38,874 bases of DNA from a virus (lineage: Duplodnaviria > Heunggongvirae > Uroviricota > Caudoviricetes): IMG/VR virus record IMGVR_UViG_643692022_000007, one strand, 5' to 3'. Shown here one piece after another: positions 1 to 34,062 of this stretch. Below the pieces are notes generated by a model that searched no databases, had not been told where the DNA came from, and was given only the letters and a program-made list of their open reading frames with translations. The stretch's first letter is position 1. Each line of letters opens with the position of its first letter. The position numbers and the translations under genes were made by a program.

Positions 1-1950
1 ATGAAATCTGTGAAATATAGACCTGATATTGACGGTTTGCGCACATTGGCCGTGCTGATGGTTATCTTGTACCATATTGGTGTACAAAAAATAAGCGGCG
101 GTTTTATAGGTGTTGATGTTTTTTTTGTTATTTCTGGATATCTCATCACTGGAATCATATATCCTAAATTACAAGACGGGACCTTTAGCTATGAAGACTT
201 TTATCTGCGAAGGATAAAAAGAATTTACCCAACTCTACTATTAGTAGTTGCAGTGACATTCATTGCATCATATTTCTTCATGATGCAAACAGATTTTAAA
301 GAATTCATAAATAGTGCTCTTGCATCGTTGCTTTCATTAAGCAATTTCTTTTTCATGTTGAACACTGGTGGTTACTTTGACCAGTCTACAGACAATCTCC
401 CGCTTTTACACACATGGTCATTATCTGTTGAAGAACAGTTTTACATTCTTTGGCCGATAATATTAACCATAGCATTTAAATTTAAGAAGGGAACAGTTAT
501 ATTCATAGTTTCCCTTTTGTTATCCATTGGGTATTCTCAATATCTAACATTCACTAACCCTTCATTTTCTTACTACATGATACCATCTAGAGCTTTCGAG
601 TTGTTAATTGGTGGTATGTGCTCAATTTATCTAAAAAATACATCCCCTACAATCAAGATCAGATCTTTACTTGCATCGTTAGGTGCAACAATTATTATTG
701 CCTCATCATTAATACTGTCAAAGAATTCAAACTTCCCTGGATTGAATGCGCTACCAGTATGTCTTGGAACTGCAATGATAATAATTGCTGGTAATGGCAA
801 TATTTATCCATCAGTTAACAAAATCCTAAGTCTTAAGCCGATTGTTTACATAGGAAAAATATCCTATGCTGCTTACTTATGGCATTGGCCATTAATTGCT
901 TTTTATAATTATAGAGGCATTCCTTTAACACCGTTAAATCAATTAATCATTATCATTATCACACTATTTTTATCAAGCGTAACATTTCATTTCATCGAAA
1001 ATAAGACCAGATATCTGAATTTTTCATTTCAAAAAACAGTCCTGCTATTTTTCGTTTTACCTGTCATTGCGTTTATAGGAATCACCATTACTTCATATAA
1101 AACAGATGGGTTCGCTTACCGATTCAAAGGTTACATCGATGAACTGAGTGATGAAAATGATCCTAGTAAAATAAGAAGCAATTGCCATACAAACTATTAT
1201 AAAAACAATTGGGATATCAAAAGAATAATCCCAGAGTGTAATATTGGTGACACATCAAGACCTGTTGATGGATATCTATGGGGAGATTCATTTGGAAATG
1301 CAAGCGCAGGGTTCTTTGACTCTTATGGGAAGGCTAACGGGCTTAACTTTCAAGAAAGAACAATAAGCTGGACCCCACCTATACCCGCAACCTCCTTTGG
1401 TCTCCCTAACTTTAAAAATGAATATAAAACCAGCACAGCAAACTTTACTTCTTGGATATTCAATGAATCTCTAAGATATAAGTACGTTGTATTATCTGCA
1501 GACTGGAGGCAATATGACAAATGTTCTCGTGATGAAATCACTGGTATACCTCATGAATGTGCTCTGTTTGATTCTAATGGTAACAACATCACCAGAGACT
1601 ATAGAAATAGAGTTGAATCCATGATTAAAGAATACATCAATCACGGCGTGAATGTAATAATCTTTAACTCTGTTAATGGCATTGATTTTAATAAAATAAA
1701 ATCAGGGAAAATAAGTGGAAAAGACATTTCCACAAAAGAATACATGAAAAAAGAGGTTGTAGGGAGTGATGAATTTATTCATTATCTTGTTAAAAAATAC
1801 CCACAAATTACTTATATTGATCCTAATAATATTCTCTGCAAAAATGGTTTATGCACAGGTCAGATTAATGGCAAAATAATTTATAGAGACGGTGGCCATT
1901 TAAACTGGTCTGGTTCAAAGGAACTTGGAAAACTTTACGTTAAAGAGTAA
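1..1950 (+). CDS. Membrane O-acyltransferase (acyltransferase-3 family with C-terminal SGNH-like extension); likely O-antigen acetyltransferase, lysogenic-conversion moron
   Basis: 649-aa ORF starting at base 1. N-terminus MKSVKYRPDIDGLRTLAVLMVILYHIG plus many hydrophobic helices, typical of OafA/Oac-type enzymes. Very AT-rich; lies distal to and convergent with the tailspike gene. Confidence 0.75.
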   Translation: MKSVKYRPDIDGLRTLAVLMVILYHIGVQKISGGFIGVDVFFVISGYLITGIIYPKLQDGTFSYEDFYLRRIKRIYPTLLLVVAVTFIASYFFMMQTDFKEFINSALASLLSLSNFFFMLNTGGYFDQSTDNLPLLHTWSLSVEEQFYILWPIILTIAFKFKKGTVIFIVSLLLSIGYSQYLTFTNPSFSYYMIPSRAFELLIGGMCSIYLKNTSPTIKIRSLLASLGATIIIASSLILSKNSNFPGLNALPVCLGTAMIIIAGNGNIYPSVNKILSLKPIVYIGKISYAAYLWHWPLIAFYNYRGIPLTPLNQLIIIIITLFLSSVTFHFIENKTRYLNFSFQKTVLLFFVLPVIAFIGITITSYKTDGFAYRFKGYIDELSDENDPSKIRSNCHTNYYKNNWDIKRIIPECNIGDTSRPVDGYLWGDSFGNASAGFFDSYGKANGLNFQERTISWTPPIPATSFGLPNFKNEYKTSTANFTSWIFNESLRYKYVVLSADWRQYDKCSRDEITGIPHECALFDSNGNNITRDYRNRVESMIKEYINHGVNVIIFNSVNGIDFNKIKSGKISGKDISTKEYMKKEVVGSDEFIHYLVKKYPQITYIDPNNILCKNGLCTGQINGKIIYRDGGHLNWSGSKELGKLYVKE

Positions 1951-1957
1951 TCATAGA

Positions 1958-1982
1958 AAAGGCGCCGTTAAACGGCGCCTTA
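1958..1982. terminator. Bidirectional rho-independent terminator between the convergent acyltransferase and tailspike genes
   Basis: Perfect hairpin AGGCGCCGTT-taa-ACGGCGCCT flanked by AAAA on one side and TTATTT on the other, between stops at 1950 and 1989. Confidence 0.8.
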
Positions 1983-1988
1983 TTTATA

Positions 1989-4427
1989 TCAAACATTAAG
2001 AGTTTGAATTATATCAGTATTACCTTTATTGTCGACTGGATAGTTACATGATAAAGTTGAATTTATAGTCAAGTTTTCACCAAACCAAAATTTATTTGAT
2101 GTCGATACTGATGAGGACCCAACCCCATCAATTTTTAAACACAACAGAGCATTTATGAAATTATTCCTAACACATCTAATTGTCTTATAGTGAGACAACC
2201 ACGATTGTTCCCCATCGTCTCTAAATAATGTAGCAACACTCTGAGAGATAAATGATTGTGAGGTAATTGTGTTGCAAGTTAACTCCATAATACTATTGGG
2301 TGAACCAAGTGATATACCTGATGGTAAACTAGCAATAACATTACCACCCCTTAGTATATTTCTATTTACTCGAAGTATCTTTGGAGTATAACCGCTTGCG
2401 CTTAAATCAAGAAAAAATGATGAGACAGTACCTAACTGATTACCTGATATTTCTATAACGCAATCAGAAGAACATTTAACATTGAATCTATTATATGTAC
2501 CAGTGAAATTGTTATTTGTTAATGATACTTTTTGATACCCACCTCCAGAGTTACTCCACATAGCTCCAAAAAATGGCGTAGATGGCAAAGATGATGACCA
2601 TCTAAAGTCATTTCCATCAATAAATAGCTCCTTACTATAACTACCAAAACTTAAAGAGCAATTTCTTATTTCATTATCATGAATGAATACACGCTCAAAA
2701 TTACTAACATGTAAGTTGGCGGTTCCTGATGTTAGTAACCTACCCATAATATTATTAGTAAGACGCAGGACTGAATTTGAAATTTCATCTTGATCTACGC
2801 CAATTATCATTCCAGTGCTTGTGATATTAATAATATTGTTATCTATCTTCCAGTCTGAGTTTGTAATATGCGTATACAAAGTTAAAAATGACGGCGCGGA
2901 AAAATAATTGTCCGATATGGATACATTATAAGAATTCATAATGTAATCATTATTTCCAGATATTCCTAAAAGAAGGATTCTATCCTTTGAACGGACGGTA
3001 TTACCTGTAATTTCTATACTATGAGCCCATCCTGTGTCAAACCACTCAGTCCCCCTGTTGGTGTATACCATCATCCAATAGCCACTAGTTGTAGCAGTAT
3101 TTCCAGATACTGTTATTTGCCCCCATGACTGTATAGCATATTCAGATCCAACCATACCATGCCCCGTATCGAATGCCATGCATCCATCAATACAATCAAA
3201 CGTATTGCCGGTAACATCATATCTGTTAAACCCAAATCGACCTTTAACTGCACCATTTCCACGAGTATTTATTCTATTTCTGAAAGTATTGCCGGTTACT
3301 GTAATATCACCAATTAATATACCATTTCCTTGATTGGCAAATGCTTGACCAGCACAGTACACAGCATGGTCATACCATCCAAGAAATGAGTTTCCAGAAA
3401 CACGCAAATTCCGCGCATTCCCTGCTATACAACTGCCAGGAGCATCTTTAAAAACCATATCAAAAACGACCAGTCCTGACGTTTTTTTGTCATGGTTATA
3501 ATATGTCTCACCAGCAACTGGAATATTACCATCAGGACCATGTATATAAGGAGACGTACCACCTGGTTCGATATCACCATAATAAGTTTGGTCTGGAATT
3601 CCTGTAGTGCTGCTGGTTCCCGATGCCGCAACTTCAATTGAACGTGCATTACCATCAATTTGTAACCCATGCACCGACTGAGCACCTACAGCACCACTCA
3701 GGAATCGGAATAATTTACGGGTATCTCTTGCCGGATCAATCTCGGTCGTAGAACCTTCAACAAAGTATGTGCGATACCGGCGAGTAATAGTTGCTGAACC
3801 ATCGCCCCATACTGAACGAACATATGACCATACATTAACAGCCGAATCAAAACAGTATATTCCAGTTGGGAAGTATACGGAGCATTTAAGATTATGCGCC
3901 TCATCCATGACCATCTGAACTTTAGGCTGATGGTTTATTGAAAGGTCACCAGATGCCAAAGCAGCCAGCTCTGCTTCGTTCATATATTTTGTAGCCAGAA
4001 TACTTGGTGTCTTCTCTACATATTCATCAAGTGTTCCATATCGGGTGTTTACAAGAGAACCATTGCCATTAGCTAATTCAAGGCGCAACTGGTCAGGATC
4101 GTATTTCAGTACATTAGGATAATAGAACTGCTGTGCCCCGTACGCATCATAAACAGCCATAGAATGGCCTTGCACAGTTACGAACTTGGCAATCTGTCCG
4201 TTATATACCGGATATCCAGCGGCGTTAATGATGATTGGTTGCGATACAGGAACGTGAGAACCGTCTTCGTTTTCCACATAAACCTGAATCTGGTTTTCAG
4301 GATTTACAGGGTCAGTGTCAATTTTACCGATATAAATTTTGCCATTGGCAACCGCTTTAAAAGAACGCGCCATAGTGAAAAGTTGCGAAGGCATCGATAC
4401 GATCACATTGGCTGTAATGTCTGTCAT
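1989..4427 (-). CDS. gp9: Tailspike protein: P22-type N-terminal head-binding domain fused to a divergent beta-helix receptor-binding domain
   Basis: 812 aa. The first ~110 residues ([58 protein letters not shown]...) closely match the remembered P22 tailspike N-terminus. The rest has repeated xTGNTx motifs typical of a right-handed beta-helix. The 3' two-thirds of the gene is AT-rich. Confidence 0.9.
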
Positions 4428-25920: not shown

Positions 25921-26103
25921 TTACATTGGTTTTGTAATGTTGCTAGTCATCGTTCGAATAACAAAATGCGTAAGTAACCTTGCTTTCCACATGTAAATCT
26001 CTTCAAGGCGAGATAAATCTACGAATACCGGACCTTTGTAATCTGGTCTCGATGCCCTTATGTATGAGCTAATAGTTTGTGCATCTTGCTCGTCAAGATT
26101 CAT
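25921..26103 (-). CDS. Hypothetical protein
   Basis: 60-aa ORF in the same operon. Confidence 0.3.
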   Translation of the reverse strand: MNLDEQDAQTISSYIRASRPDYKGPVFVDLSRLEEIYMWKARLLTHFVIRTMTSNITKPM

Positions 26104-26296
26104 GACTTCCCTCTCTAACAGACTTCAGATTATTCCACTCCGTTACCGCACTGCGATAATTCGCGGCCGCCACAGCAGCGTGGTTAGCGCAGTAGATTTG
26201 GCACCCGTTCTCCATGTCGAATATTGTCGGTGATTTTCCGCATTTACATTTTTTGGCACGCGGTGCGTCTGAACACATTCCGTTAACGGTGTCCAT
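26093..26296 (-). CDS. Hypothetical Cys-rich small protein
   Basis: 67 aa with CKCG...C...C spacing suggestive of a small metal-binding fold; first ORF after the terminator below the helicase gene. Confidence 0.4.
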   Translation of the reverse strand: MDTVNGMCSDAPRAKKCKCGKSPTIFDMENGCQIYCANHAAVAAANYRSAVTEWNNLKSVREGSHES

Positions 26297-26321
26297 CAGG
26301 ATCCCCCTCGTTCTTAATCCA

Positions 26322-26350
26322 ATAAAAAAGGGCTACTGTGTAAATAGCCC
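26322..26350 (-). terminator. Rho-independent terminator between the replication and nin modules (tR2-like position)
   Basis: Minus-strand hairpin GGGCTA-tttacacag-TAGCCC followed by TTTTTTATTGG. Confidence 0.7.
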
Positions 26351-26377
26351 CTGTTATTAGCTCAGTGATGTAGATGG

Positions 26378-27754
26378 TCATACGTCAGCCCCTTGTGCAT
26401 ATCGTCTGCCACGTGCACCGGGTGCATTTGATGTTGTGCAAATCTGTCTGGCTTCATCCTGGTCACATGCAACAAAGTGTCCGTTGCAGAACTGCTGGTA
26501 AACCGTACCAAGCGAGCCAAAACGGTTTTTCGTCACGATGATTTCAGCAAATGGCGCGGCGCTACTGTTCTCGTCATATACAGCTTCCCGATAGAGCATG
26601 ATGATTGAGTCTGCGTCCTGTTCAATGCTTCCTGAATCACGCAAATCTGCGTTTGTCGGGCGTTTGTTTGGTCGCTTCTCAACATCGCGCGAAAGCTGAC
26701 TTAGGGAGATAACAGGCGTTTTCAGGTCTTTCGCCATCGCCTTCAGGCTTCCGGAGATGTGAGCAATTGCGAGGTCGTTGCGATCTGCTTTCGGCTTCTC
26801 AATCAGGCCAAGATAATCCGCCATGATGAGTGACAGGTTTGGATTTTCCTGTTTATGCCGTTCTGCGATTGAGCGTATTTCTTCGACCGATAACCGCGAG
26901 GCATCGACTACCCATACATCCAAATCCGCAAGCTGACTCATGCCGTTAGCAACACGTGCCCAGCCCTCGTCATCCATCGATGCAGGATTTCGCAGTACGC
27001 TAACCGACATCCTCCCGGCGTTGGCAATGCTTCGTTCTGCAATCTGCAATGCGCTCATTTCCATCGAGAAAATCAACACTCCTCGCCGGACGTCAGAACC
27101 AGGAATAACGCGGCTTGCAACGCCTTCGGCAATCTTCAGCGCCAGCTCGGTTTTACCCATACCAGGACGAGCAGCGATTATCACCAGGTCTTCCGCGTTC
27201 ATCCCTCCGGTGATGGCATCAAGTTCTTCGATTCCGGTCTTCAGGGTATCGGACTCTTCTCCGTTCCTCAGACGCCTGTCAAGCGTGTCAGTGTAGTCAG
27301 TGATGATTTCACCCAACCGTACAGGTTTAACCTCGTCACGGGGCTTTCTGATGGCTGAGAGACGCTTTACAAGTTCATCCATCGCCTGACTCGATGCGTC
27401 GATGGTTCCGCTCTGAATTGGTTCACGCATTTCATCCATGATTTCCAGCACCAGACGGCGGTGATAGTTATCCGCGACCATTCCGGCATATCCCTTCAGG
27501 TTTGCGGCACTCGGGCAGTTTTTGCTGGTCATCAGGATTGACGTGAAATGCTCCTCTCCGCACGCCTCGGCAACCATCAGCGCGTCGATTAGGTTTCTGT
27601 TTCGCGCCTGCTTGCGGATAACCTCGAAGGCTTTCCGGTAGAGCGGAATTGAAAACGCTTCCGGCTCAAGCGTTGCCAGAACGTCACTGGCAGTTGGTGT
27701 TAATCCACCAATCAGCAGGCCACCGATAACGCTCGCTTCGATATCCTGTTTCAT
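26378..27754 (-). CDS. Replicative DNA helicase, DnaB family (P22 gene 12-like)
   Basis: 458 aa with a Walker A motif ([12 protein letters not shown]) and DnaB-like architecture; directly downstream of the O-like gene. Confidence 0.9.
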
Positions 27755-28698
27755 GCAATCCCCCTGTCTGCAAACTTCCCTTCACGAACTCCCGTTAACG
27801 AATCTTCTCTCAGCAGGTAATCAAAATCGGCCGTCCAGCCAGTGTCGTTGTCTCCGAAGTAAAACGGCTTGGCCTGATGTACAAACGCCCTGACATACGC
27901 TCTGAAACCGTCCACGTTTGGCGTTTTCAGTTGCGGGATGATTTTCTTCAGGCGGCGTTTGCGTTTCTCGTTGACCGCAACAGCGTGTGGCAGTCTGTCA
28001 CCGACTTCGGTGTTGTAGGCGTTCAGGAAGGATTCGTAGTCGATTCGTTCTGCCTTGCGACGTTCAGGTTTAACCTTCCCATCACCTCCCCCATTGGGGG
28101 GTAGGGGGGTATTATTTATATTCTTGTTAATACCTTCTTGTTCATGATGTGCGGTTGTTTGTGCGGCTTCATGTGCGCTTTCATGTGCGGCATGTACTCT
28201 GAAAGCCGCGCCATTGCTGGCTTCGTCATGTGCGTCATCATGTGCGGTTGTTTGTGCGGCTTCATGTGCGGGTGAATTGTTCATTTTTTGAGCGTATTCA
28301 TGGTAATTTGTGACGGTGATCACACGACCTTTTTGCTTCTCTCCATCAATGGAGATCATCCCCTCTTTCACAAAAACCTGAAGCATCCGCTCAACCTGAT
28401 CACGGCTTGCCGGCTTGCCATGCCTGTCGCATAACTGAAGACCTAAATCAGCTGCTGTCACAACCAGTTGACCGGGTTGCAGATGCCATTCATGACCTTT
28501 GAAATTCGCTTTGTATGGCTTTCTGGCGGCATTCAGGAGAAGGTTTTCCCACAGGGTGCGAAGATAAACATCTTTCGCCCATGACTGTTTCAGAATGCTC
28601 CGGTACAACGGAATGTAACCAGTTTTCTGGTTCTCCATCCTGTTGCTCCTGCGCTCGTGTGCGGCGCTGAAATCGTAGATTTTTGCTGTATTGCTCAT
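27751..28698 (-). CDS. Replication initiation protein (lambda O / P22 gene 18 analogue) containing the origin iterons
   Basis: 315 aa; N-terminus [10 protein letters not shown] resembles lambda O (MTNTAKILNF); internal repeated peptide [10 protein letters not shown] arises from DNA iterons within the gene. Confidence 0.8.
28140..28280. repeat. ori: Candidate replication origin: array of direct repeats (iterons) with adjacent G-run/AT-rich segment
   Basis: Roughly 36-bp unit catgatgtgcggttgtttgtgcggcttcatgtgcg present twice (about 28141 and 28239); six or more copies of tcatgtgcg-like core; followed at about 28083-28140 by gggggg runs and AT-rich sequence. Confidence 0.65.
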
Positions 28699-28700
28699 AA

Positions 28701-28973
28701 CTACCTGCCTTGACGAAAGACCTTAAGAACATCGTTAAACTGACTTACGGATATGTCTTCTTTGAGCAGCTTTTCCAGAAATGCGTTTGGAATGAACGTA
28801 TATCCCTCCTCTTTTGGTAGAGACGGGAGCAACGCCCTTGCCTCAGCCTTCAGAAGCTCAGTTCTGGCAACTTTCACAAAAGAGATTTGAGTTCTTTCAT
28901 CAATGGAACGAAGGAAGCGCAAACGCTTAACTTCTTTGTGTGTATCAGGTGGATTAAAGCCTTTGTTTCGCAT
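28701..28973 (-). CDS. Hypothetical protein between cII and the initiator gene
   Basis: About 90 aa from MRNKGFNPPDTHKEVKRLRFLRS..., GAGGT about 7 nt upstream of the ATG; no equivalent in lambda. Confidence 0.4.
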   Translation of the reverse strand: MRNKGFNPPDTHKEVKRLRFLRSIDERTQISFVKVARTELLKAEARALLPSLPKEEGYTFIPNAFLEKLLKEDISVSQFNDVLKVFRQGR

Positions 28974-29048
28974 ATAATTACCTCGTTGGATGTTGTTAAA
29001 ATTCCATTTGTATTTGATCAGAACGCTCGGTTGCCGCCGGGCGTTTTT
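28972..29048 (+). ncRNA. oop: OOP-like antisense RNA overlapping the 3' end of cII
   Basis: Plus-strand GATCAGAACGCTCGGTTGCCGCCGGGCGTTTTTTATTGGTGAG matches the remembered 3' end and terminator of lambda OOP RNA, antisense to cII. The 5' end is inferred. Confidence 0.6.
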
Positions 29049-29292
29049 TATTGGTGAGTCCATCAAGCGCATACTTAAAAGCCCTGCTAATCGGACTGAT
29101 GTCTGATGCCATTCCAAAAGCACACAGGACCGAAGCAATAAACCTCCAGTCCGTTCTGCTTATCTTCGATTCATGACAGCCAATCATCTTTGCCAGACCG
29201 CGCTGGGTAAGCGTTGACAGGTTGATGAGTAAATCTGTTTCTGCGCGATCAACGTCACGCTGTGATAGTTTGCTGTAACTTGTTTGTTCCAT
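28996..29292 (-). CDS. cII: CII transcriptional activator
   Basis: 98 aa; C-terminus TNKKRPAATERSDQIQMEF matches lambda CII almost exactly; N-terminal HTH region diverged. Confidence 0.85.
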   Translation of the reverse strand: MEQTSYSKLSQRDVDRAETDLLINLSTLTQRGLAKMIGCHESKISRTDWRFIASVLCAFGMASDISPISRAFKYALDGLTNKKRPAATERSDQIQMEF

Positions 29293-29356
29293 TTCTTACT
29301 ATTTCCATAGGTAAATAATCACTAATACTCATCTTTCGATGAGTGCTTAATTAGTT

Positions 29357-29391
29357 ACCGCGTTGTCGGCGGTGCAGATTGATAAAGAGCG
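29357..29391 (-). promoter_or_regulatory. nutR: nutR (boxA plus boxB) between cro and cII
   Basis: Minus-strand boxA CGCTCTTTA and boxB hairpin ACCGCCGACAACGCGGT, which resembles P22-type boxB. Confidence 0.65.
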
Positions 29392-29398
29392 GTGTTAC

Positions 29399-29626
29399 TT
29401 ATGCAGCCAGAAGGTTCTTTTTACTTATTTCAAGCATTTCGCTTGCTTGATATTTGCCACCAGAAATCTCTTCGATTTTTGAGGCGTATTTCGTTTTCCC
29501 AAAAAACTCAGTCTTAGGGAGGAAGCCGTTTTTGAGCCACTTATAGACAGCCCTTTCGCTAACTCCACAAGCCTTCGCAACTTCAGGTATGCCGACACCT
29601 TTAATCGGCTCATCAAGATTTTGCAT
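29399..29626 (-). CDS. cro: Cro-like repressor (HTH)
   Basis: First gene rightward of the divergent operator region; from MQNLDEPIKGVGIPEVAKACGVSERAVYKWLKNGFLPK... about 75 aa with a clear HTH. Confidence 0.7.
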   Translation of the reverse strand: MQNLDEPIKGVGIPEVAKACGVSERAVYKWLKNGFLPKTEFFGKTKYASKIEEISGGKYQASEMLEISKKNLLAA

Positions 29627-29704
29627 AGGAATGTCCTTTTTCGTACTTTCAGTACGCATTATGATTGAACTGAAAGTTTTTGCAAGTGCTTTAGTATCGT
29701 ACTC
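29627..29704. promoter_or_regulatory. Divergent OR / pR / pRM control region with repeated operator-like motifs
   Basis: 78-bp gap between divergent cro and cI. Contains palindrome CGTACTTTCAGTACG, a related inverted copy AACTGAAAGTT, and another CGTACT abutting the cI ATG. No SD before cI, consistent with a leaderless transcript. Confidence 0.65.
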
Positions 29705-30412
29705 ATGGTTCAGAATGAAAAAGTGCGCAAAGAATTCGCCCAGCGGCTAGCGCAAGCCTGTAAAGAAGCTGGTCTTGATGAACATGGTAGGGGAATGGCT
29801 ATAGCCCGTGCCCTTTCTCTTTCGTCCAAAGGCGTTAGCAAATGGTTTAATGCTGAGTCTTTACCGCGTCAGGAAAAAATGAATGCGCTTGCGAAATTTC
29901 TAAACGTTGATGTTGTTTGGCTTCAGCACGGCACTTCCTTAAATGGAGCGAATGATGAAGATACTCTTTCATTTGTTGGCAAATTAAAAAAAGGGTTAGT
30001 GCGCGTGGTTGGTGAGGCAATTCTTGGTGTTGATGGTGCCATCGAGATGACCGAAGAACGCGATGGGTGGCTCAAGATTTATAGCGATGATCCAGATGCC
30101 TTTGGCCTTCGTGTAAAAGGAGATAGCATGTGGCCTAGAATAAAATCAGGAGAATATGTACTCATTGAGCCTAACACCAAAGTATTCCCTGGTGATGAGG
30201 TGTTTGTCAGAACCATCGAAGGACACAACATGATCAAGATTCTTGGCTATGACAGAGATGGAGAATACCAATTTACAAGCATCAACCAGGACCACAGGCC
30301 AATAACGTTGCCTTATCATCAAGTAGCAAAAGTGGAGTATGTGGCTGGTATTCTGAAGCAATCTCGCCATCTGGATGACATCGAGGCAAGGGAATGGCTG
30401 AGAGATTCCTGA
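29705..30412 (+). CDS. cI: CI-type repressor (N-terminal HTH, C-terminal S24/LexA-like autopeptidase)
   Basis: 235 aa; HTH-like N-terminus; C-terminal domain with GDSM serine motif (VKGDSMWPRI) and downstream Lys, as in LexA/CI self-cleaving repressors. Confidence 0.9.
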   Translation: MVQNEKVRKEFAQRLAQACKEAGLDEHGRGMAIARALSLSSKGVSKWFNAESLPRQEKMNALAKFLNVDVVWLQHGTSLNGANDEDTLSFVGKLKKGLVRVVGEAILGVDGAIEMTEERDGWLKIYSDDPDAFGLRVKGDSMWPRIKSGEYVLIEPNTKVFPGDEVFVRTIEGHNMIKILGYDRDGEYQFTSINQDHRPITLPYHQVAKVEYVAGILKQSRHLDDIEAREWLRDS

Positions 30413-30518
30413 CATCAAAGTCATAGAGTGAGTTTTCTAGTTAGAAATAGTGGTCAATGGGTACGCTTAGGTAAACCGTTTAAACATAATAAACAAGCCA
30501 TATAAGATGAAATAAATC

Positions 30519-30896
30519 ATGAGCGATAAAGAGTTTAAAGTACTTAATTTTGATGATTTTGCTCATTATTTGAGCACATTGAACGGCGAACAAATTTGTC
30601 CAATGTGTATGGAAGAGTCATGGACGCTTTTCACCCCAAACAAGCTTCCTCCAGAAGACGAGGATAGGTATGTAATAAGTTCTATCCCAGGATCACTTAT
30701 TTCAAGTAAAAAACCTGAAAAATCAAATCTCTTCTTCAGAAGTTACAACAACGATGTCCTCCTGATGCAATGCAGAAATTGTGGATACATGGCATTTTTT
30801 AATTATAAAAAAGTCCAAGAAAACCTTGAATCAGGGGATTATATAAAAAAAGAAGATATAGATATGGTGGATGAAAATGACAAATCAGAAGACTGA
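30519..30896 (+). CDS. Hypothetical small zinc-ribbon-like protein (immunity-region moron, gene A)
   Basis: 125 aa; two CxxC pairs (CPMC at about residue 27, CRNC at about 85); acidic C-terminal tail; strongly AT-rich; first gene downstream of cI on the same strand. Confidence 0.6.
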   Translation: MSDKEFKVLNFDDFAHYLSTLNGEQICPMCMEESWTLFTPNKLPPEDEDRYVISSIPGSLISSKKPEKSNLFFRSYNNDVLLMQCRNCGYMAFFNYKKVQENLESGDYIKKEDIDMVDENDKSED

Positions 30897-31356
30897 TTTC
30901 TTCCGTCCAATGGAGTATGATAATAACTATGAGCAATTTGGTGTTATAGAAGCACACAGGAATGGTCGTTCTACTCCGTCATATCAGCCAGGCACCATTG
31001 GTAAGGATATCCCGGTTATTATTGCGCATAAGTTAAGCGATCAACCAGCAGGGGGTGAGCCACAGATGAGCGTAAAATCACTGTCACGTTGGGAGTTTTG
31101 GCTAGGGATTTTCACTGCCATTATTGGGATATTTTCCATTGTTGTAGGAGCAACGTGGACAATTTCTAATAATATCAATGATAAGATTAATGCATCAAGA
31201 CAAGAGCTAACCGGGAACATCCAATCCAGTCGAGCAGAAATCACGGCAAGAATTGACAGGCTCGAAGATAAGATGGAGTCTAATTTCAAAGAAACATCAT
31301 CGAATCTGTTCAAAATACAGGCAATTCTAGAAGCAAAATCCGACAAAGAAAAATAA
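30871..31356 (+). CDS. Hypothetical single-pass membrane protein with C-terminal coiled coil (immunity-region moron, gene B)
   Basis: 161 aa; MKM N-terminus; one TM helix (WEFWLGIFTAIIGIFSIVVGATW); heptad-like C-terminus; overlaps gene A by 26 nt; followed by a terminator. Confidence 0.6.
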   Translation: MKMTNQKTDFFRPMEYDNNYEQFGVIEAHRNGRSTPSYQPGTIGKDIPVIIAHKLSDQPAGGEPQMSVKSLSRWEFWLGIFTAIIGIFSIVVGATWTISNNINDKINASRQELTGNIQSSRAEITARIDRLEDKMESNFKETSSNLFKIQAILEAKSDKEK

Positions 31357-31363
31357 GAAAGTC

Positions 31364-31388
31364 CGGCCTCAGCGCCGGGTTTTCTTTG
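31364..31388 (+). terminator. Rho-independent terminator after the moron pair
   Basis: Hairpin CCGGC-ctcagc-GCCGG followed by GTTTTCTTTG, right after the gene B stop. Confidence 0.6.
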
Positions 31389-31539
31389 CCTTACGATCCC
31401 CACACCTAATAACACCTTAACCAATTGTATTTATTGAAAAATTGATAGATACAACTTGCTAAACCACGCAATTCTGATCCCTGCAGCATAACCTTCATCC
31501 GCAACATTTACAAAAATAAATTTCCTTATATATCAAAAT

Positions 31540-31660
31540 CATATTTCGTATAGTTAATAAATCACAAACAATTCGTACCAATAGTTCTTGATAATATCGA
31601 ACTATTGGTTCATTATTATCGCCATCAGCAGGACGCTGGTAGCCAAACGGAACAGATTGG
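31540..31660 (+). promoter_or_regulatory. Candidate OL / pL region upstream of nutL and N
   Basis: AT-rich gap containing an 11-bp perfect inverted repeat ACCAATAGTTC(n11)GAACTATTGGT and CGTAC motifs shared with OR; GATAAT and TATAGT -10-like hexamers. Exact promoter not resolved. Confidence 0.4.
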
Positions 31661-31663
31661 CAG

Positions 31664-31697
31664 GCTCTTTAACTTCGATGGGGCGCTGACAAAGCGC
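31664..31697 (+). promoter_or_regulatory. nutL: nutL (boxA plus boxB)
   Basis: boxA-like GCTCTTTAAC followed 10 nt later by boxB hairpin GCGCTGACAAAGCGC (P22-type), about 120 nt upstream of N. Confidence 0.75.
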
Positions 31698-31816
31698 AAA
31701 CAGATACCAAACGAGATGGGTTTGGCGGTGATGTGAATTGCAGCTGCAACGACAGCAACCAGAAGATCAGCATCTGGCGCATCACCACCAAAGCCATTTC
31801 ACATGAGGAAAATATC

Positions 31817-32158
31817 ATGACGGTAATCGTGTACGGGAAATCAACATTCGCAGGAAATGCCAAAACTCGCCGTCATGAGCGGCGCAGAAAGCTGGCTATC
31901 GAGCGTGATGCCATCTGCAACATCATCGATTCGATCTTCAGTACAGACAGTGAGGAACCTGTTCAGGAAGCCCCGAGAAAGCGTTTAAGCCTTTCTGAAA
32001 AAGCAATATCACTCGGAAGCCTTCGCTGCAAGAAGTCAGAAGAAGTCGAGCGTAAACAGAATCGTATTTACTACCGCAAGCCACGCAGTGAAATGGGTGT
32101 GACTTGTTCAGGTCGCCAGAAGCAACGCGGAAAATCAATTCCAGCTTATTACGATTGA
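31817..32158 (+). CDS. N: Antitermination protein N
   Basis: From MTVIVYGKSTFAGNAKTRRHERRRKLAIERD... (arginine-rich motif) to a C-terminus ...VTCSGRQKQRGKSIPAYYD resembling lambda N (ITCSGRQKIKGKSIPLI); GAGGAA before the ATG. Confidence 0.85.
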   Translation: MTVIVYGKSTFAGNAKTRRHERRRKLAIERDAICNIIDSIFSTDSEEPVQEAPRKRLSLSEKAISLGSLRCKKSEEVERKQNRIYYRKPRSEMGVTCSGRQKQRGKSIPAYYD

Positions 32159-32166
32159 GGTGAGAT

Positions 32167-32304
32167 ATGCTCAAGAAAGTCAAACGCCGACTTTACAAAG
32201 AAGGTAGATATTCATGCCAGTTGCCAAAATGCGACACAACAAAATGGAGTGTCGATGATTGGTGTAACTGGATAGATAGATACGGAACTTGGTGGGATAA
32301 ATAA
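32167..32304 (+). CDS. Hypothetical small Cys/Trp-rich protein (45 aa)
   Basis: Hand-translated MLKKVKRRLYKEGRYSCQLPKCDTTKWSVDDWCNWIDRYGTWWDK; strong SD GAGGTGAGAT immediately before the ATG, right after the N stop. Confidence 0.35.
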   Translation: MLKKVKRRLYKEGRYSCQLPKCDTTKWSVDDWCNWIDRYGTWWDK

Positions 32305-32428
32305 CAGGTAACTTAAGCGTATTTACTTTCGCAGCAAACAACTTATTTGAGGTGAGATATGGAAGAAGAATTTGAAGAGTTCGAAGAGCATCCTCAGGAT
32401 GTGATGGAACAATACCAGGACTATCCGT

Positions 32429-32629
32429 ATGACTACGACTATTGATAAAAATCAATGGTGTGGACAATTCAAGCGATGCAATGGATGCAAGCTGCAATCG
32501 GAATGCATGGTTAAGCCTGAAGAAATGTTTCCTGTAATGGAAGATGGGAAATATGTCGATAAATGGGCAATACGAACGACGGCAATGATTGCCAGAGAAC
32601 TTGGTAAACAGAATAACAAGGCTGCCTGA
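32429..32629 (+). CDS. Hypothetical small Cys-containing protein (start uncertain)
   Basis: 66-aa track ORF MTTTIDKNQWCGQFKRCNGCKLQSEC...; overlaps an upstream 28-aa acidic ORF that has the better SD. Confidence 0.3.
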   Translation: MTTTIDKNQWCGQFKRCNGCKLQSECMVKPEEMFPVMEDGKYVDKWAIRTTAMIARELGKQNNKAA

Positions 32630-32669
32630 TGGTGGCCTTTATTTTTGGCATAAACAACAGAATAAATAC

Positions 32670-32709
32670 TGCTCCGTGTATTCATTCCAACGAGTGAATA
32701 CACGGAGCA
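32670..32709. repeat. 15-bp perfect inverted repeat (strong hairpin)
   Basis: TGCTCCGTGTATTCA-(10 nt)-TGAATACACGGAGCA, between the small-ORF cluster and the coiled-coil gene. Confidence 0.85.
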
Positions 32710-32798
32710 ATGTCGCTCGTAACTAAACAGGAGCCGACTTGTTCTGATTATTGGAAATCTTCTTTGCCCTCCAGTGTGGGGGCTTTTTTGATGGAGGA

Positions 32799-33770
32799 TA
32801 TATGAGTGAAGTAACAGATTTAGTTGTTATTGAAAAAGCAAATGCAATGATTGTATTTCAGTCTGCTGACCAGATTGAAGAAATTCTCCAAAAGGTTGAA
32901 CGTGAAGTTATGTCCTTTGTGCCTGATATCACAACGGCAAAGGGCAGAAAGGAGATCGCTTCTCTGGCGTATAAAGTTGCGCAGACGAAAACATATCTCG
33001 ATGGTCTTGGCAAAGACCTTGTTGCTGAACTGAAGGAAATTCCAAAGCTAATTGATGCCAACCGCAAGACAGTGCGCGATCGCCTTGATGAACTGAAAGC
33101 CAAGGCACGCCAGCCTCTTACTGATTATGAGGAAGAACAGGCGCGAATTAAAGCCGAAGAAGAAGCTAAGGCAGCAGCTGAAGCTCTCGCAAAGCAAATT
33201 GAGTCTGACCATGAAATAGCGATTTTGATGGATCGCGAATTTGACCGCCAAAGAGAAGAGGCAAGACTCAAAGCGGAGCAGGAAAAGCGAGAGCATGAAG
33301 AACGCTTAAAAAGAGAAGCTGAAGAGAAAGCCAGAGCAGAAGCCGAAGCAAAGGCAAAAGCCGAAATTGAAGCAGCAGCAAGACGAGAAGCAGAGGCTAA
33401 GGCCGCAGCGGAACGTGCAGAGCGTGAACGCATTGAAGCCGAGCAACGAGCACAGCGCGAAGCAAAAGAGGCAGCAGAACGAGCTGAAAGAGAAAAGCAT
33501 GCGGCAATTGAAGCAGAACGCCGAAAAGCACAGGAGGAGGCTGAACGAATCCGGCTCGAGGCTGAAGCAAAAGAGCAAGCCAGAATAGCAGAAGAAAAAA
33601 GAATCAAGGACGAAGAAGAGCGTAGAGCAAAGGATAAAGCTCACCGGAAAGAAGTAAATAACAAAATACTTGCTGACCTTATCAAGGTTGGCGCATCAGA
33701 AGATGTTGCTAAAAATATCATAACAGCCATCGTAAAAGGCGAAGTATTCGCAACAAAAATAACCTACTAA
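32799..33770 (+). CDS. Hypothetical highly charged coiled-coil protein with Ala/Glu/Lys/Arg repeats
   Basis: From MSEVTDLVVIEKANAMIVFQ..., about 323 aa; central ~200 aa low-complexity (AEAEAKAKAEIEAAARREAEAKAAAERAERERIEAE...); globular ends. Confidence 0.6.
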   Translation, partial: YMSEVTDLVVIEKANAMIVFQSADQIEEILQKVEREVMSFVPDITTAKGRKEIASLAYKVAQTKTYLDGLGKDLVAELKEIPKLIDANRKTVRDRLDELKAKARQPLTDYEEEQARIKAEEEAKAAAEALAKQIESDHEIAILMDREFDRQREEARLKAEQEKREHEERLKREAEEKARAEAEAKAKAEIEAAARREAEAKAAAERAERERIEAEQRAQREAKEAAERAEREKHAAIEAERRKAQEEAERIRLEAEAKEQARIAEEKRIKDEEERRAKDKAHRKEVNNKILADLIKVGASEDVAKNIITAIVKGEVFATKITY

Positions 33771-33793
33771 TAAACCAACATAAGGAACCACCC

Positions 33794-33925
33794 ATGATTT
33801 ACGCAATCGCGGGAGGCGCTCGCATGGGTGCCTTCCAACTAAATGAATCTTTACTTGAACGAATCACCCGTAAATTACGTGACGGATGGAAAAGAGTTGA
33901 GGTCTTATTATGCGCAATGAAATAG
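33794..33925 (+). CDS. cIII: CIII-like protein (FtsH inhibitor)
   Basis: Hand-translated 43 aa MIYAIAGGARMGAFQLNESLLERITRKLRDGWKRVEVLLCAMK; core matches lambda CIII (MQYAIAGW...ESLLERITRKLRDGWKRL); AAGGAA SD. Confidence 0.75.
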   Translation: MIYAIAGGARMGAFQLNESLLERITRKLRDGWKRVEVLLCAMK

Positions 33926-34062
33926 CCATCAATCACCAGATACTTCGTGCAGCACAGAACAAAGCAGTAATAGCCAGATTTATTGGTGATTCCAAAATGT
34001 GGCTTGAAGCAAATAAAGCGATGAAATCAGCTATCAACCTTCCGTGGTATCGCAGGAAATGA
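33910..34062 (+). CDS. kil: Kil-like protein
   Basis: Hand-translated 50 aa MRNEIAINHQILRAAQNKAVIARFIGDSKMWLEANKAMKSAINLPWYRRK; resembles lambda Kil (..IATFIGDEKMFREA..); overlaps the cIII stop. Confidence 0.55.
   Translation: MRNEIAINHQILRAAQNKAVIARFIGDSKMWLEANKAMKSAINLPWYRRK

Follow-up and report, generated by a model that had tools for sequence, protein, structure and literature searches.

A candidate phage-exclusion gene pair between cI and the tM terminator of a P22-like Escherichia coli prophage

Here we describe two overlapping genes, named A and B, which lie immediately downstream of cI, the gene for the repressor, in the IMG/VR virus record IMGVR_UViG_643692022_000007, a stretch of 38,874 nucleotides (nt) referred to below as the window. 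It corresponds to a P22-like (Lederbergvirus-like) Escherichia coli prophage whose backbone is 96% identical to that of phage HF4s, and an E. coli draft genome contig matches its positions 26000-34000 at 100% identity. Judged by its conservation, the A/B pair is a mobile module and not the product of chance open reading frames (ORFs), and it is a good candidate for a new phage-exclusion module. An anti-phage role of some kind seems to us rather probable. In a narrower and tentative proposal, plausible though far from secure, the pair would be an abortive-infection or toxin-antitoxin-like exclusion module carried as cargo of the repressor (pRM) operon.

The exchangeable slot and the distribution of the pair

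The homology that the window shares with phage 933W, and with two complete genomes of E. coli, ended at 30423-30428, 11-16 nt past the cI stop codon, and was recovered at 31360-31379, at the hairpin of the terminator tM. These breakpoints delimit an exchangeable cassette (30424-31359, + strand) of 936 base pairs (bp), consisting of a leader, gene A and gene B, which encodes two proteins of 14.6 and 18 kDa. The initial annotation, made from the sequence alone, had located the cassette correctly but with limits of 30413-31390 that have been corrected here. Between the same junctions 933W carries L0084-L0083-stk-L0081 (locus L034, 4269-6346), and given that homology breaks just after cI and resumes at the 933W pM terminator, the cassette replaces the stk block of that phage. 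Two E. coli prophages contain in the same slot unrelated hypothetical proteins of 126 amino acids (aa) (L035, 3826-4206) and 120 aa (L036, 3875-4383). The initial annotation had suggested a survey of what else occupies this place in related prophages. In the genomes compared here, at least four different cargos, the segment 30424-31359 among them, alternate in a single slot with sharp limits between the same cI and tM. Its designation as the equivalent of the lambda rexAB slot proved exact, the same 933W-type cI and terminator flanking either this pair or the stk block. It must be noted that the other occupants of the cI-to-tM slot are mostly uncharacterised, L0084 of 933W belonging to phrog_3467 (function unknown) and L0083 to a RuvC-like PHROG.

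The guanine plus cytosine (GC) content of the cassette is 37.9%, against a window mean of 46.4% (standard deviation 4.8), and equally low values were found in 7.7% of the windows of the same size. The lower GC content is therefore real, although only moderate and not the strong AT-richness first described. Together with the sharp junctions it fits the horizontal acquisition that had been put forward for the cassette. The interval between cI and N has been reported as a hotspot of mosaic diversity that houses rexAB and bstA (PMC8585504). In addition, the slot has natural boundaries and offers "swap" controls, as the same cI and terminator are found with other cargo in other genomes.

Gene A followed by an overlapping gene B was found at about 30 loci, and every locus examined has that order. 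At least 12 kinds of repressor were found upstream of the pair among Escherichia, Citrobacter, Klebsiella, and Yersinia. It is located after 933W-type cI in several different phage backbones, after a hybrid cI with another DNA-binding domain (L018), after other S24 repressors (206, 212, 225, 227-254, and 246 aa) in Citrobacter, Yersinia rohdei, and uncultured viral contigs, and after short non-S24 helix-turn-helix (HTH) repressors of 127-139 aa, those of Klebsiella spallanzanii included. One copy adjoins an integrase at a prophage end (L029), and an Edwardsiella prophage remnant contains a copy without a neighbouring repressor (L014). In phages N7 and HZ41 a Mnt/Arc-like gene is followed by homologues of A (34% identity) and B (45%, measured over its C-terminal half), and in N7 the ATG of A overlaps the end of that gene. 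Comparison with the P22 record places this N7/HZ41 pair, unlike the window copy, at the orf59a/sieA position, between mnt and gene 16. Two very distant homologues of A were also observed after S24 repressors, one with a coil-transmembrane-coil partner of 165 aa (L030, 3905-4691) and the other with a 125-aa partner made of a coil and a C-terminal transmembrane (TM) segment (L032, 3012-4209); at the latter locus a DUF3024 gene is placed between the repressor and A.

The pair was seen in prophages or prophage remnants, and in enteric and related Proteobacteria only. Megablast and blastn searches with the cassette gave no match in 50,697 phage records or in 5,426 complete E. coli genomes, and tblastn recovered the phages N7 and HZ41 only. 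The close family is rare: among 100,044 species-representative genomes a single locus was detected, and scans with two subfamilies were negative. Each protein falls into few protein clusters and is "hypothetical" in all sources, and neither EFER_2073/2074 nor the PHROG families of A and B are mentioned in any paper found.

Given that no function is annotated anywhere and that a good Shine-Dalgarno sequence was not seen upstream of gene A, it could be argued that both genes are chance ORFs in an AT-rich spacer. However, A and B are kept at 30-80% identity across genera, with homologues diverging to about 20%, and their ratios of nonsynonymous to synonymous substitutions (dN/dS) are well below 1. 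Moreover, four cysteines of A are invariant in 63 sequences, and both the overlap and the gene order are conserved. These data refute a chance origin, which is hardly conceivable.

The variety of repressors also bears on an alternative in which the pair would serve the maintenance of the prophage with no anti-phage action. It could do so as an addiction pair, with B as a membrane toxin and A as a labile antitoxin, or as a modulator of induction like Hex of phage 434, which has the same operon position and reduces RecA-dependent prophage induction (PMC3564112). A small acidic protein followed by an overlapping membrane protein is the typical antitoxin-toxin order, and the example of Hex points in the same direction. 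Nevertheless, the pair follows cleavable S24, short non-S24 HTH, and Mnt-like repressors alike, so it is unlikely that the role of the pair depends on a single type of repressor. In this regard, it must also be considered that many prophage toxin-antitoxin pairs act as abortive-infection systems, and this alternative then overlaps with the abortive-infection reading. Maintenance without any action against phages seems to us quite improbable.

Predicted properties of proteins A and B

Gene A (30519-30896, + strand) encodes a 125-aa protein belonging to phrog_4293, of function unknown. The protein is acidic (isoelectric point, pI, 4.52) and carries the motifs CPMC at residues 27-30 and CRNC at residues 85-88, 55 residues apart, in agreement with the small acidic protein with two CxxC pairs of the initial annotation. 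The four cysteines were invariant in 63/63 aligned homologues and gene A showed dN/dS values of 0.08-0.45. A profile search of the family yielded 97 cluster representatives of 44-160 aa, with the exception of one 351-aa protein that matched in three stretches, and extended the family to Pluralibacter, Morganella, and Achromobacter. The AlphaFold2 model of A (predicted local distance difference test, pLDDT, 66.7) consists of an N-terminal helix followed by the first cysteine knuckle and a strand, then a loop (some 40 residues, poorly predicted) in which an IPG motif is conserved, and finally a beta-hairpin bearing the second knuckle, after which come a helix and an acidic tail. From this model, protein A would have a split four-cysteine zinc-ribbon-like fold, and we infer that it may bind zinc.

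Gene B (30877-31356, + strand) encodes a predicted single-pass membrane protein of 159 aa, whose C-terminal half matches phrog_24865, also of function unknown. Its start is most likely the ATG at 30877 (MTNQ...), because it is called so in prophages with an identical module. With this start the overlap with gene A is 20 nt, and the alternative ATG at 30871 ("MKM"), chosen in the initial annotation, is less likely. In the AlphaFold2 model residues 1-65 are disordered, while residues 71-158 form a single helix with pLDDT values of 85-94. The most hydrophobic 19-residue window, residues 74-92 (31096-31152, + strand), coincides with this helix and is taken as the TM segment; glycines at positions 77, 84, and 91 recur there at every seventh residue. 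The one TM helix first assigned to B was thus recovered, but its C-terminal coiled coil was not. Residues 93-159 (31153-31353, + strand) form instead a long amphipathic helix (pLDDT 84-94), with a hydrophobic period peaking at 3.67-3.75 residues and not at the heptad value of 3.5, and they are the best-conserved part of the A/B pair.

In the B homologue of N7 (L001, 5332-5841) the long helix contains an insert of exactly 11 residues, a length that fits an 11-residue (hendecad) repeat, and the internal Met codon described below is absent. Weak matches of the helix to trimeric stalks, namely influenza HA2 46-106 (E = 0.002) and Trimer_CC, suggest that B may be an oligomeric stalk, without homology being implied. 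The resemblance to HA2 was rejected as homology and is treated as a shared stalk-like composition.

The two parts of B evolve in a different manner. The TM segment and the long helix have dN/dS values of 0.11-0.19, while the 56 N-terminal codons have values of 0.48-1.19. The N-terminal frame is nevertheless translated: across 14 lineages its 868 codons include no stop, whereas the two alternative frames have 40 and 103. Such a fast-evolving tail would be expected for an arms-race surface or for a surface covarying with a partner. Within residues 1-63 (30877-31065), two short motifs containing proline are conserved, [FY]x[RQE]P around residue 10 and [SV][FY]xP around residue 36, and they resemble docking motifs.

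An internal Met codon, M64 (31066-31068, + strand), is a possible second start that would give a 96-aa product. An internal Met located 8-10 residues before the TM helix is present in 14/15 lineages (L014, L018-L029, and L037 included) and absent in N7. Purine runs resembling a Shine-Dalgarno sequence precede it in about half of the lineages; on synonymous-codon resampling this signal was not significant (combined p = 0.27), and the sequence before M64 is explained by the encoded Glu and Gly residues. Gene callers sometimes start B at this codon, and one such 96-aa call (P0014) lies within an intact full-length ORF. A second 96-aa product is therefore possible, although unsupported beyond amino acid composition. 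Likewise, an antisense ORF of 127 aa (31041-31424, - strand) was discarded as a by-product of the composition of B, since synonymous shuffles left it equally open in 10-100% of the trials in 12 lineages.

With respect to topology, the long N-terminus has no signal peptide and the Lys and Arg residues flanking the TM helix (32 vs. 21) slightly favour the N-in orientation, from which we infer that the N-terminus of B would face the cytoplasm. The remainder of the protein, residues 64-159, has a pI of 8.0.

The layout of B is relevant to a second alternative, a SieA-type entry blocker. In it the helix of B would be periplasmic and would prevent the DNA of a superinfecting phage from passing, for instance by interfering with the conduit that P22-like phages build from ejection proteins, with A only aiding the folding, insertion, or dosage of B and with survival of the cell. 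The window phage is itself P22-like, the pair of N7 occupies the sieA/orf59a position with no SieA relative there, and the short form of B would be arranged like a type II membrane protein, its helix of about 65 residues lying in the periplasm. However, B has no similarity to SieA and a single TM helix rather than several, and SieA acts alone while A is conserved to the same degree as B and is always present. Furthermore, the helix that would face the phage is the most conserved part and the cytoplasmic tail is the variable one, which is the opposite of what is predicted for a periplasmic region tracking its target. We consider an entry blocker of this kind unlikely.

Searches with A and B gave no match in Pfam, NCBIfam, or PADLOC, and the PHROGs database returned the two families of function unknown only. 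Family-wide searches with 63 A and 14 B homologues recognised nothing either, PADLOC giving scattered chance matches for the 63 A sequences, and profiles of PDB sequences gave nothing for A. As comparisons with RexA/RexB and P22-type SieA were equally negative, the pair stands outside the Pfam, NCBIfam, PADLOC, RexAB, and SieA families; in the initial annotation, too, neither protein had been recognised as Rex, SieB, or any named immunity-region protein. Some candidate identities were dropped. The match of B to TIGR04402 ("mobilome CxxC", E = 0.056) was present in 2/14 members only. The similarity of B to phage i-spanins (Rz; phrog_739, E = 0.07) was weak, and B lies in an immunity region and not in a lysis cassette, with no o-spanin partner. 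Finally, the "two overlapping exclusion genes" of the Pseudomonas phage Fc02 are unrelated and are located upstream of the repressor in a Mu-like phage.

It could also be considered that the pair is a lysogenic-conversion factor acting on the host envelope (for example stress, serum, or colicin tolerance), like other membrane proteins that prophages express, and unrelated to phages. B is a predicted membrane protein, expression in the lysogen is likely on the grounds given below, and the pair is known only from enteric and related Proteobacteria. Against this, no signal peptide, lipobox, or adhesin-like domain was found, a cytoplasmic four-cysteine partner is hard to accommodate, and both slots used by the pair are ones with demonstrated exclusion genes. 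For these reasons an envelope function appears very unlikely.

Immunity region and other features of the window

As described in the initial annotation, the two + strand ORFs are present after cI and before a terminator and the pL/nutL/N region, with N confirmed by Pfam. The cI gene (29705-30412, + strand) encodes a 235-aa repressor with HTH_3 and Peptidase_S24 domains. It is of the immunity type of 933W, a Shiga-toxin phage, with 97.4% nt identity to the cI of that phage, and this cI is present in 615 complete E. coli genomes. Upstream, the right operator (OR) region (29642-29712) contains the divergent promoters pR and pM (pRM) and three operators (29642-29656, 29666-29680, and 29698-29712), all of them exact matches to the annotated oR1, oR2, and oR3 of 933W; the pR/pM region is identical in 75/78 nt. 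The cro gene (29399-29626, - strand; 75 aa) was assigned from the second Met of its ORF, in accordance with a 75-aa call at the same position in prophages with an identical module and with its 933W counterpart.

The AT-rich gap between cI and A is 106 nt long and includes the cassette-specific leader (30424-30518, + strand; 32% GC), in which no terminator-like hairpin was found. There was no terminator-like site between cI and A, and no cassette-specific promoter with conserved spacing was found in the gap. A putative promoter TTAAAC/TAAGAT was rejected, as its spacing differs in L018 and the promoter scan was silent there. The leader contains a mini-ORF, ATG AAA TAA (30507-30515), in frame with gene A and 3 nt upstream of its ATG, which is also present in L018. 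An operator-like sequence (30451-30465, - strand) with 4 mismatches to oR3 is probably due to chance, about 40 matches of equal quality being found window-wide.

The intrinsic terminator tM (31355-31386, + strand) is a hairpin followed by a T-run, with a dG of -16.1 kcal/mol; gene B stops 6 nt ahead of the hairpin. Its core, CCGGCCTCAGCGCCGGGTTTTCTTTGCC, is identical in 933W, where it is annotated as "tM, putative terminator for pM transcript". Since the hairpin has an A-tract on its 5' side and a T-tract on its 3' side, bidirectional action is possible. For the kinase of 933W, cotranscription with cI and abortion of HK97 infection have been reported (PMC3564112). For the window we propose that A and B would likewise be made in the lysogen from the cI transcript ending at tM. 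This expression is indicated by the lack of a terminator between cI and A, by the 933W terminator and promoter, and by the fusion of the N7 pair to the end of a mnt-like gene.

Downstream of tM, operators resembling those of OL, the left operator region (31574-31588 and 31598-31612), and a pL-like promoter (TTGATA, 17 nt, CATTAT) are located at 31574-31616 (+ strand) and presumably function as such. The segment 31664-31697 (+ strand), with a boxA-like sequence GCTCTTTAAC and a boxB hairpin GCGCTGACAAAGCGC read directly from the sequence, is taken by us to be nutL owing to its resemblance to nut sites of the P22 type. It is followed by the antiterminator gene N (31817-32158, + strand; Pfam N_peptide, E = 1.4e-25; phrog_271). 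A scan of 29000-32500 with Rfam gave no RNA families.

Some further traits of the window were observed. Positions 1-3000 have the lowest GC content of the window (32-35%) and include an ORF of 649 aa (1-1950, + strand) and the start of another of 812 aa (1989-4427, - strand); this part may be a further horizontally acquired block, for instance a tailspike or surface-modification region. The replication-initiator-like ORF at 27751-28698 (- strand) shows a His/Ala-rich tandem-like repeat, and a duplication of 36 nt with 97% identity is found at 28142-28177 and 28235-28270. Finally, the segment 32751-33770 (+ strand) encodes a 339-aa protein rich in Glu, Ala, Lys, and Arg, the HF4s counterpart of which is annotated as a coil-containing "antitoxin"/phi80 Agt-like protein.

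Possible mechanism and comparison with known systems

In the abortive-infection reading that we tentatively prefer, A and B would be cotranscribed with cI in the lysogen, on a transcript ending at tM, and would serve to exclude other phages. B would be an inner-membrane protein whose variable tail of 70 residues stays on the cytoplasmic side, and it would oligomerise through the glycine-lined TM helix and the long conserved helix. A would be a cytoplasmic four-cysteine zinc-ribbon protein, its synthesis coordinated with that of B through the translation of overlapping genes, and would restrain or activate B through the B tail. An infecting phage would disturb this arrangement, B would then harm membrane function, and the infected cell would stop supporting phage growth, following an abortive-infection logic like that of lambda RexA/RexB or of a membrane toxin-antitoxin pair. 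The sensor and membrane-effector roles suggested in the initial annotation are putative and, like lysogenic expression and anti-phage action, drawn from context and architecture. This reading is preferred because the cytoplasmic partner equals B in conservation and is always present, because the gene order and the overlap fit stoichiometric control, and because the variable region would face the cytoplasm. A broader version, possible though rather doubtful, would see in A/B a new and widespread two-component prophage immune family in which A gates a trimeric B through its cytoplasmic tail, and which travels across Proteobacteria as a cassette plugged into the operons of cI, short HTH, and Mnt repressors, with variants that use other coil-plus-TM partners.

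Several points weigh against this proposal. The model of A is moderately confident and zinc binding is assumed from the four cysteines, while the topology of B is based on a weak charge bias (32 vs. 21 Lys/Arg). B has one TM helix, against four in RexB, and nothing marks it as a pore; its fast-evolving tail could be just a loosely constrained linker. The role given to A is a guess, as known single-protein exclusion factors need no cytoplasmic partner. PADLOC-DB 2.0 gave 0 families at E ≤ 10 for both proteins, and among the loci seen the pair is in no chromosomal defence island. Additionally, genes of the slot can have other roles, such as the lowering of prophage induction by 434 Hex.

The stretch between repressor and pL has been the source of classic exclusion systems (rexAB, the 933W kinase, Hex, and BstA), whose mechanisms are mostly poorly understood. 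Should phage exclusion be true of the A/B pair, it would represent a compact system for the cytoplasmic control of a membrane effector, it would add a family missed by the current defence-finding tools, and it would be a further reason to search repressor operons for cargo, that of Mnt in P22-like phages included. Should it not be true, the position in the slot would by itself be a weak predictor of function.

With respect to lambda rexAB, the pair has the same location between cI and the terminator that precedes OL/pL, on the cI strand, with a similar gap after cI (106 nt here and 112 nt in lambda) and the same order of a cytoplasmic protein followed by a membrane protein. However, the hhalign probability was 0.2% for the A family against RexA and 0.2% for the B family against RexB, RexA has 279 aa while A has 125 aa with four cysteines, and in place of the 20-nt overlap of A and B there are 15 nt between rexA and rexB. 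The 933W stk block shares with the pair the same cI allele, operators, and terminator, and is an alternative occupant of the same slot, but its proteins are unrelated to A and B, which lack a kinase domain and belong to other PHROG families.

The likeness to SieA of P22 lies in the position of the N7 pair, at sieA/orf59a, and in the prediction of B as an inner-membrane protein of about 160 aa. Nevertheless, BLASTP of B against SieA gave E = 3.6, ORF14 of N7 did not align with SieA (only the P22 type being compared), and SieA is a polytopic protein that acts alone, while B is always accompanied by a cytoplasmic partner. BstA of the Salmonella prophage BTP1 differs in being a single soluble protein that acts at phage DNA replication sites, and there was no PADLOC match for A/B. 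The acidic first gene and the 20-nt overlap recall type II toxin-antitoxin systems with a logic like that of SpoIISA/SpoIISB, a likeness of architecture only. In SieB/Esc of P22 and lambda, as in holin/antiholin genes, dual starts lead to a shorter form of the protein, which modulates the full-length one. The conserved in-frame Met within B could yield a candidate modulator of this type, although N7 lacks it.

Mycobacteriophages and Gordonia phages have Rex-type defences in which pairs of a cytoplasmic and a membrane protein are encoded near the repressor. A prophage-expressed viral defence is reported for the Gordonia phage CarolAnn (PMC6426606). Defences of the CarolAnn type differ from A/B in their hosts. 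The A/B pair is best filed as a candidate repressor-operon exclusion cassette from undescribed protein families.

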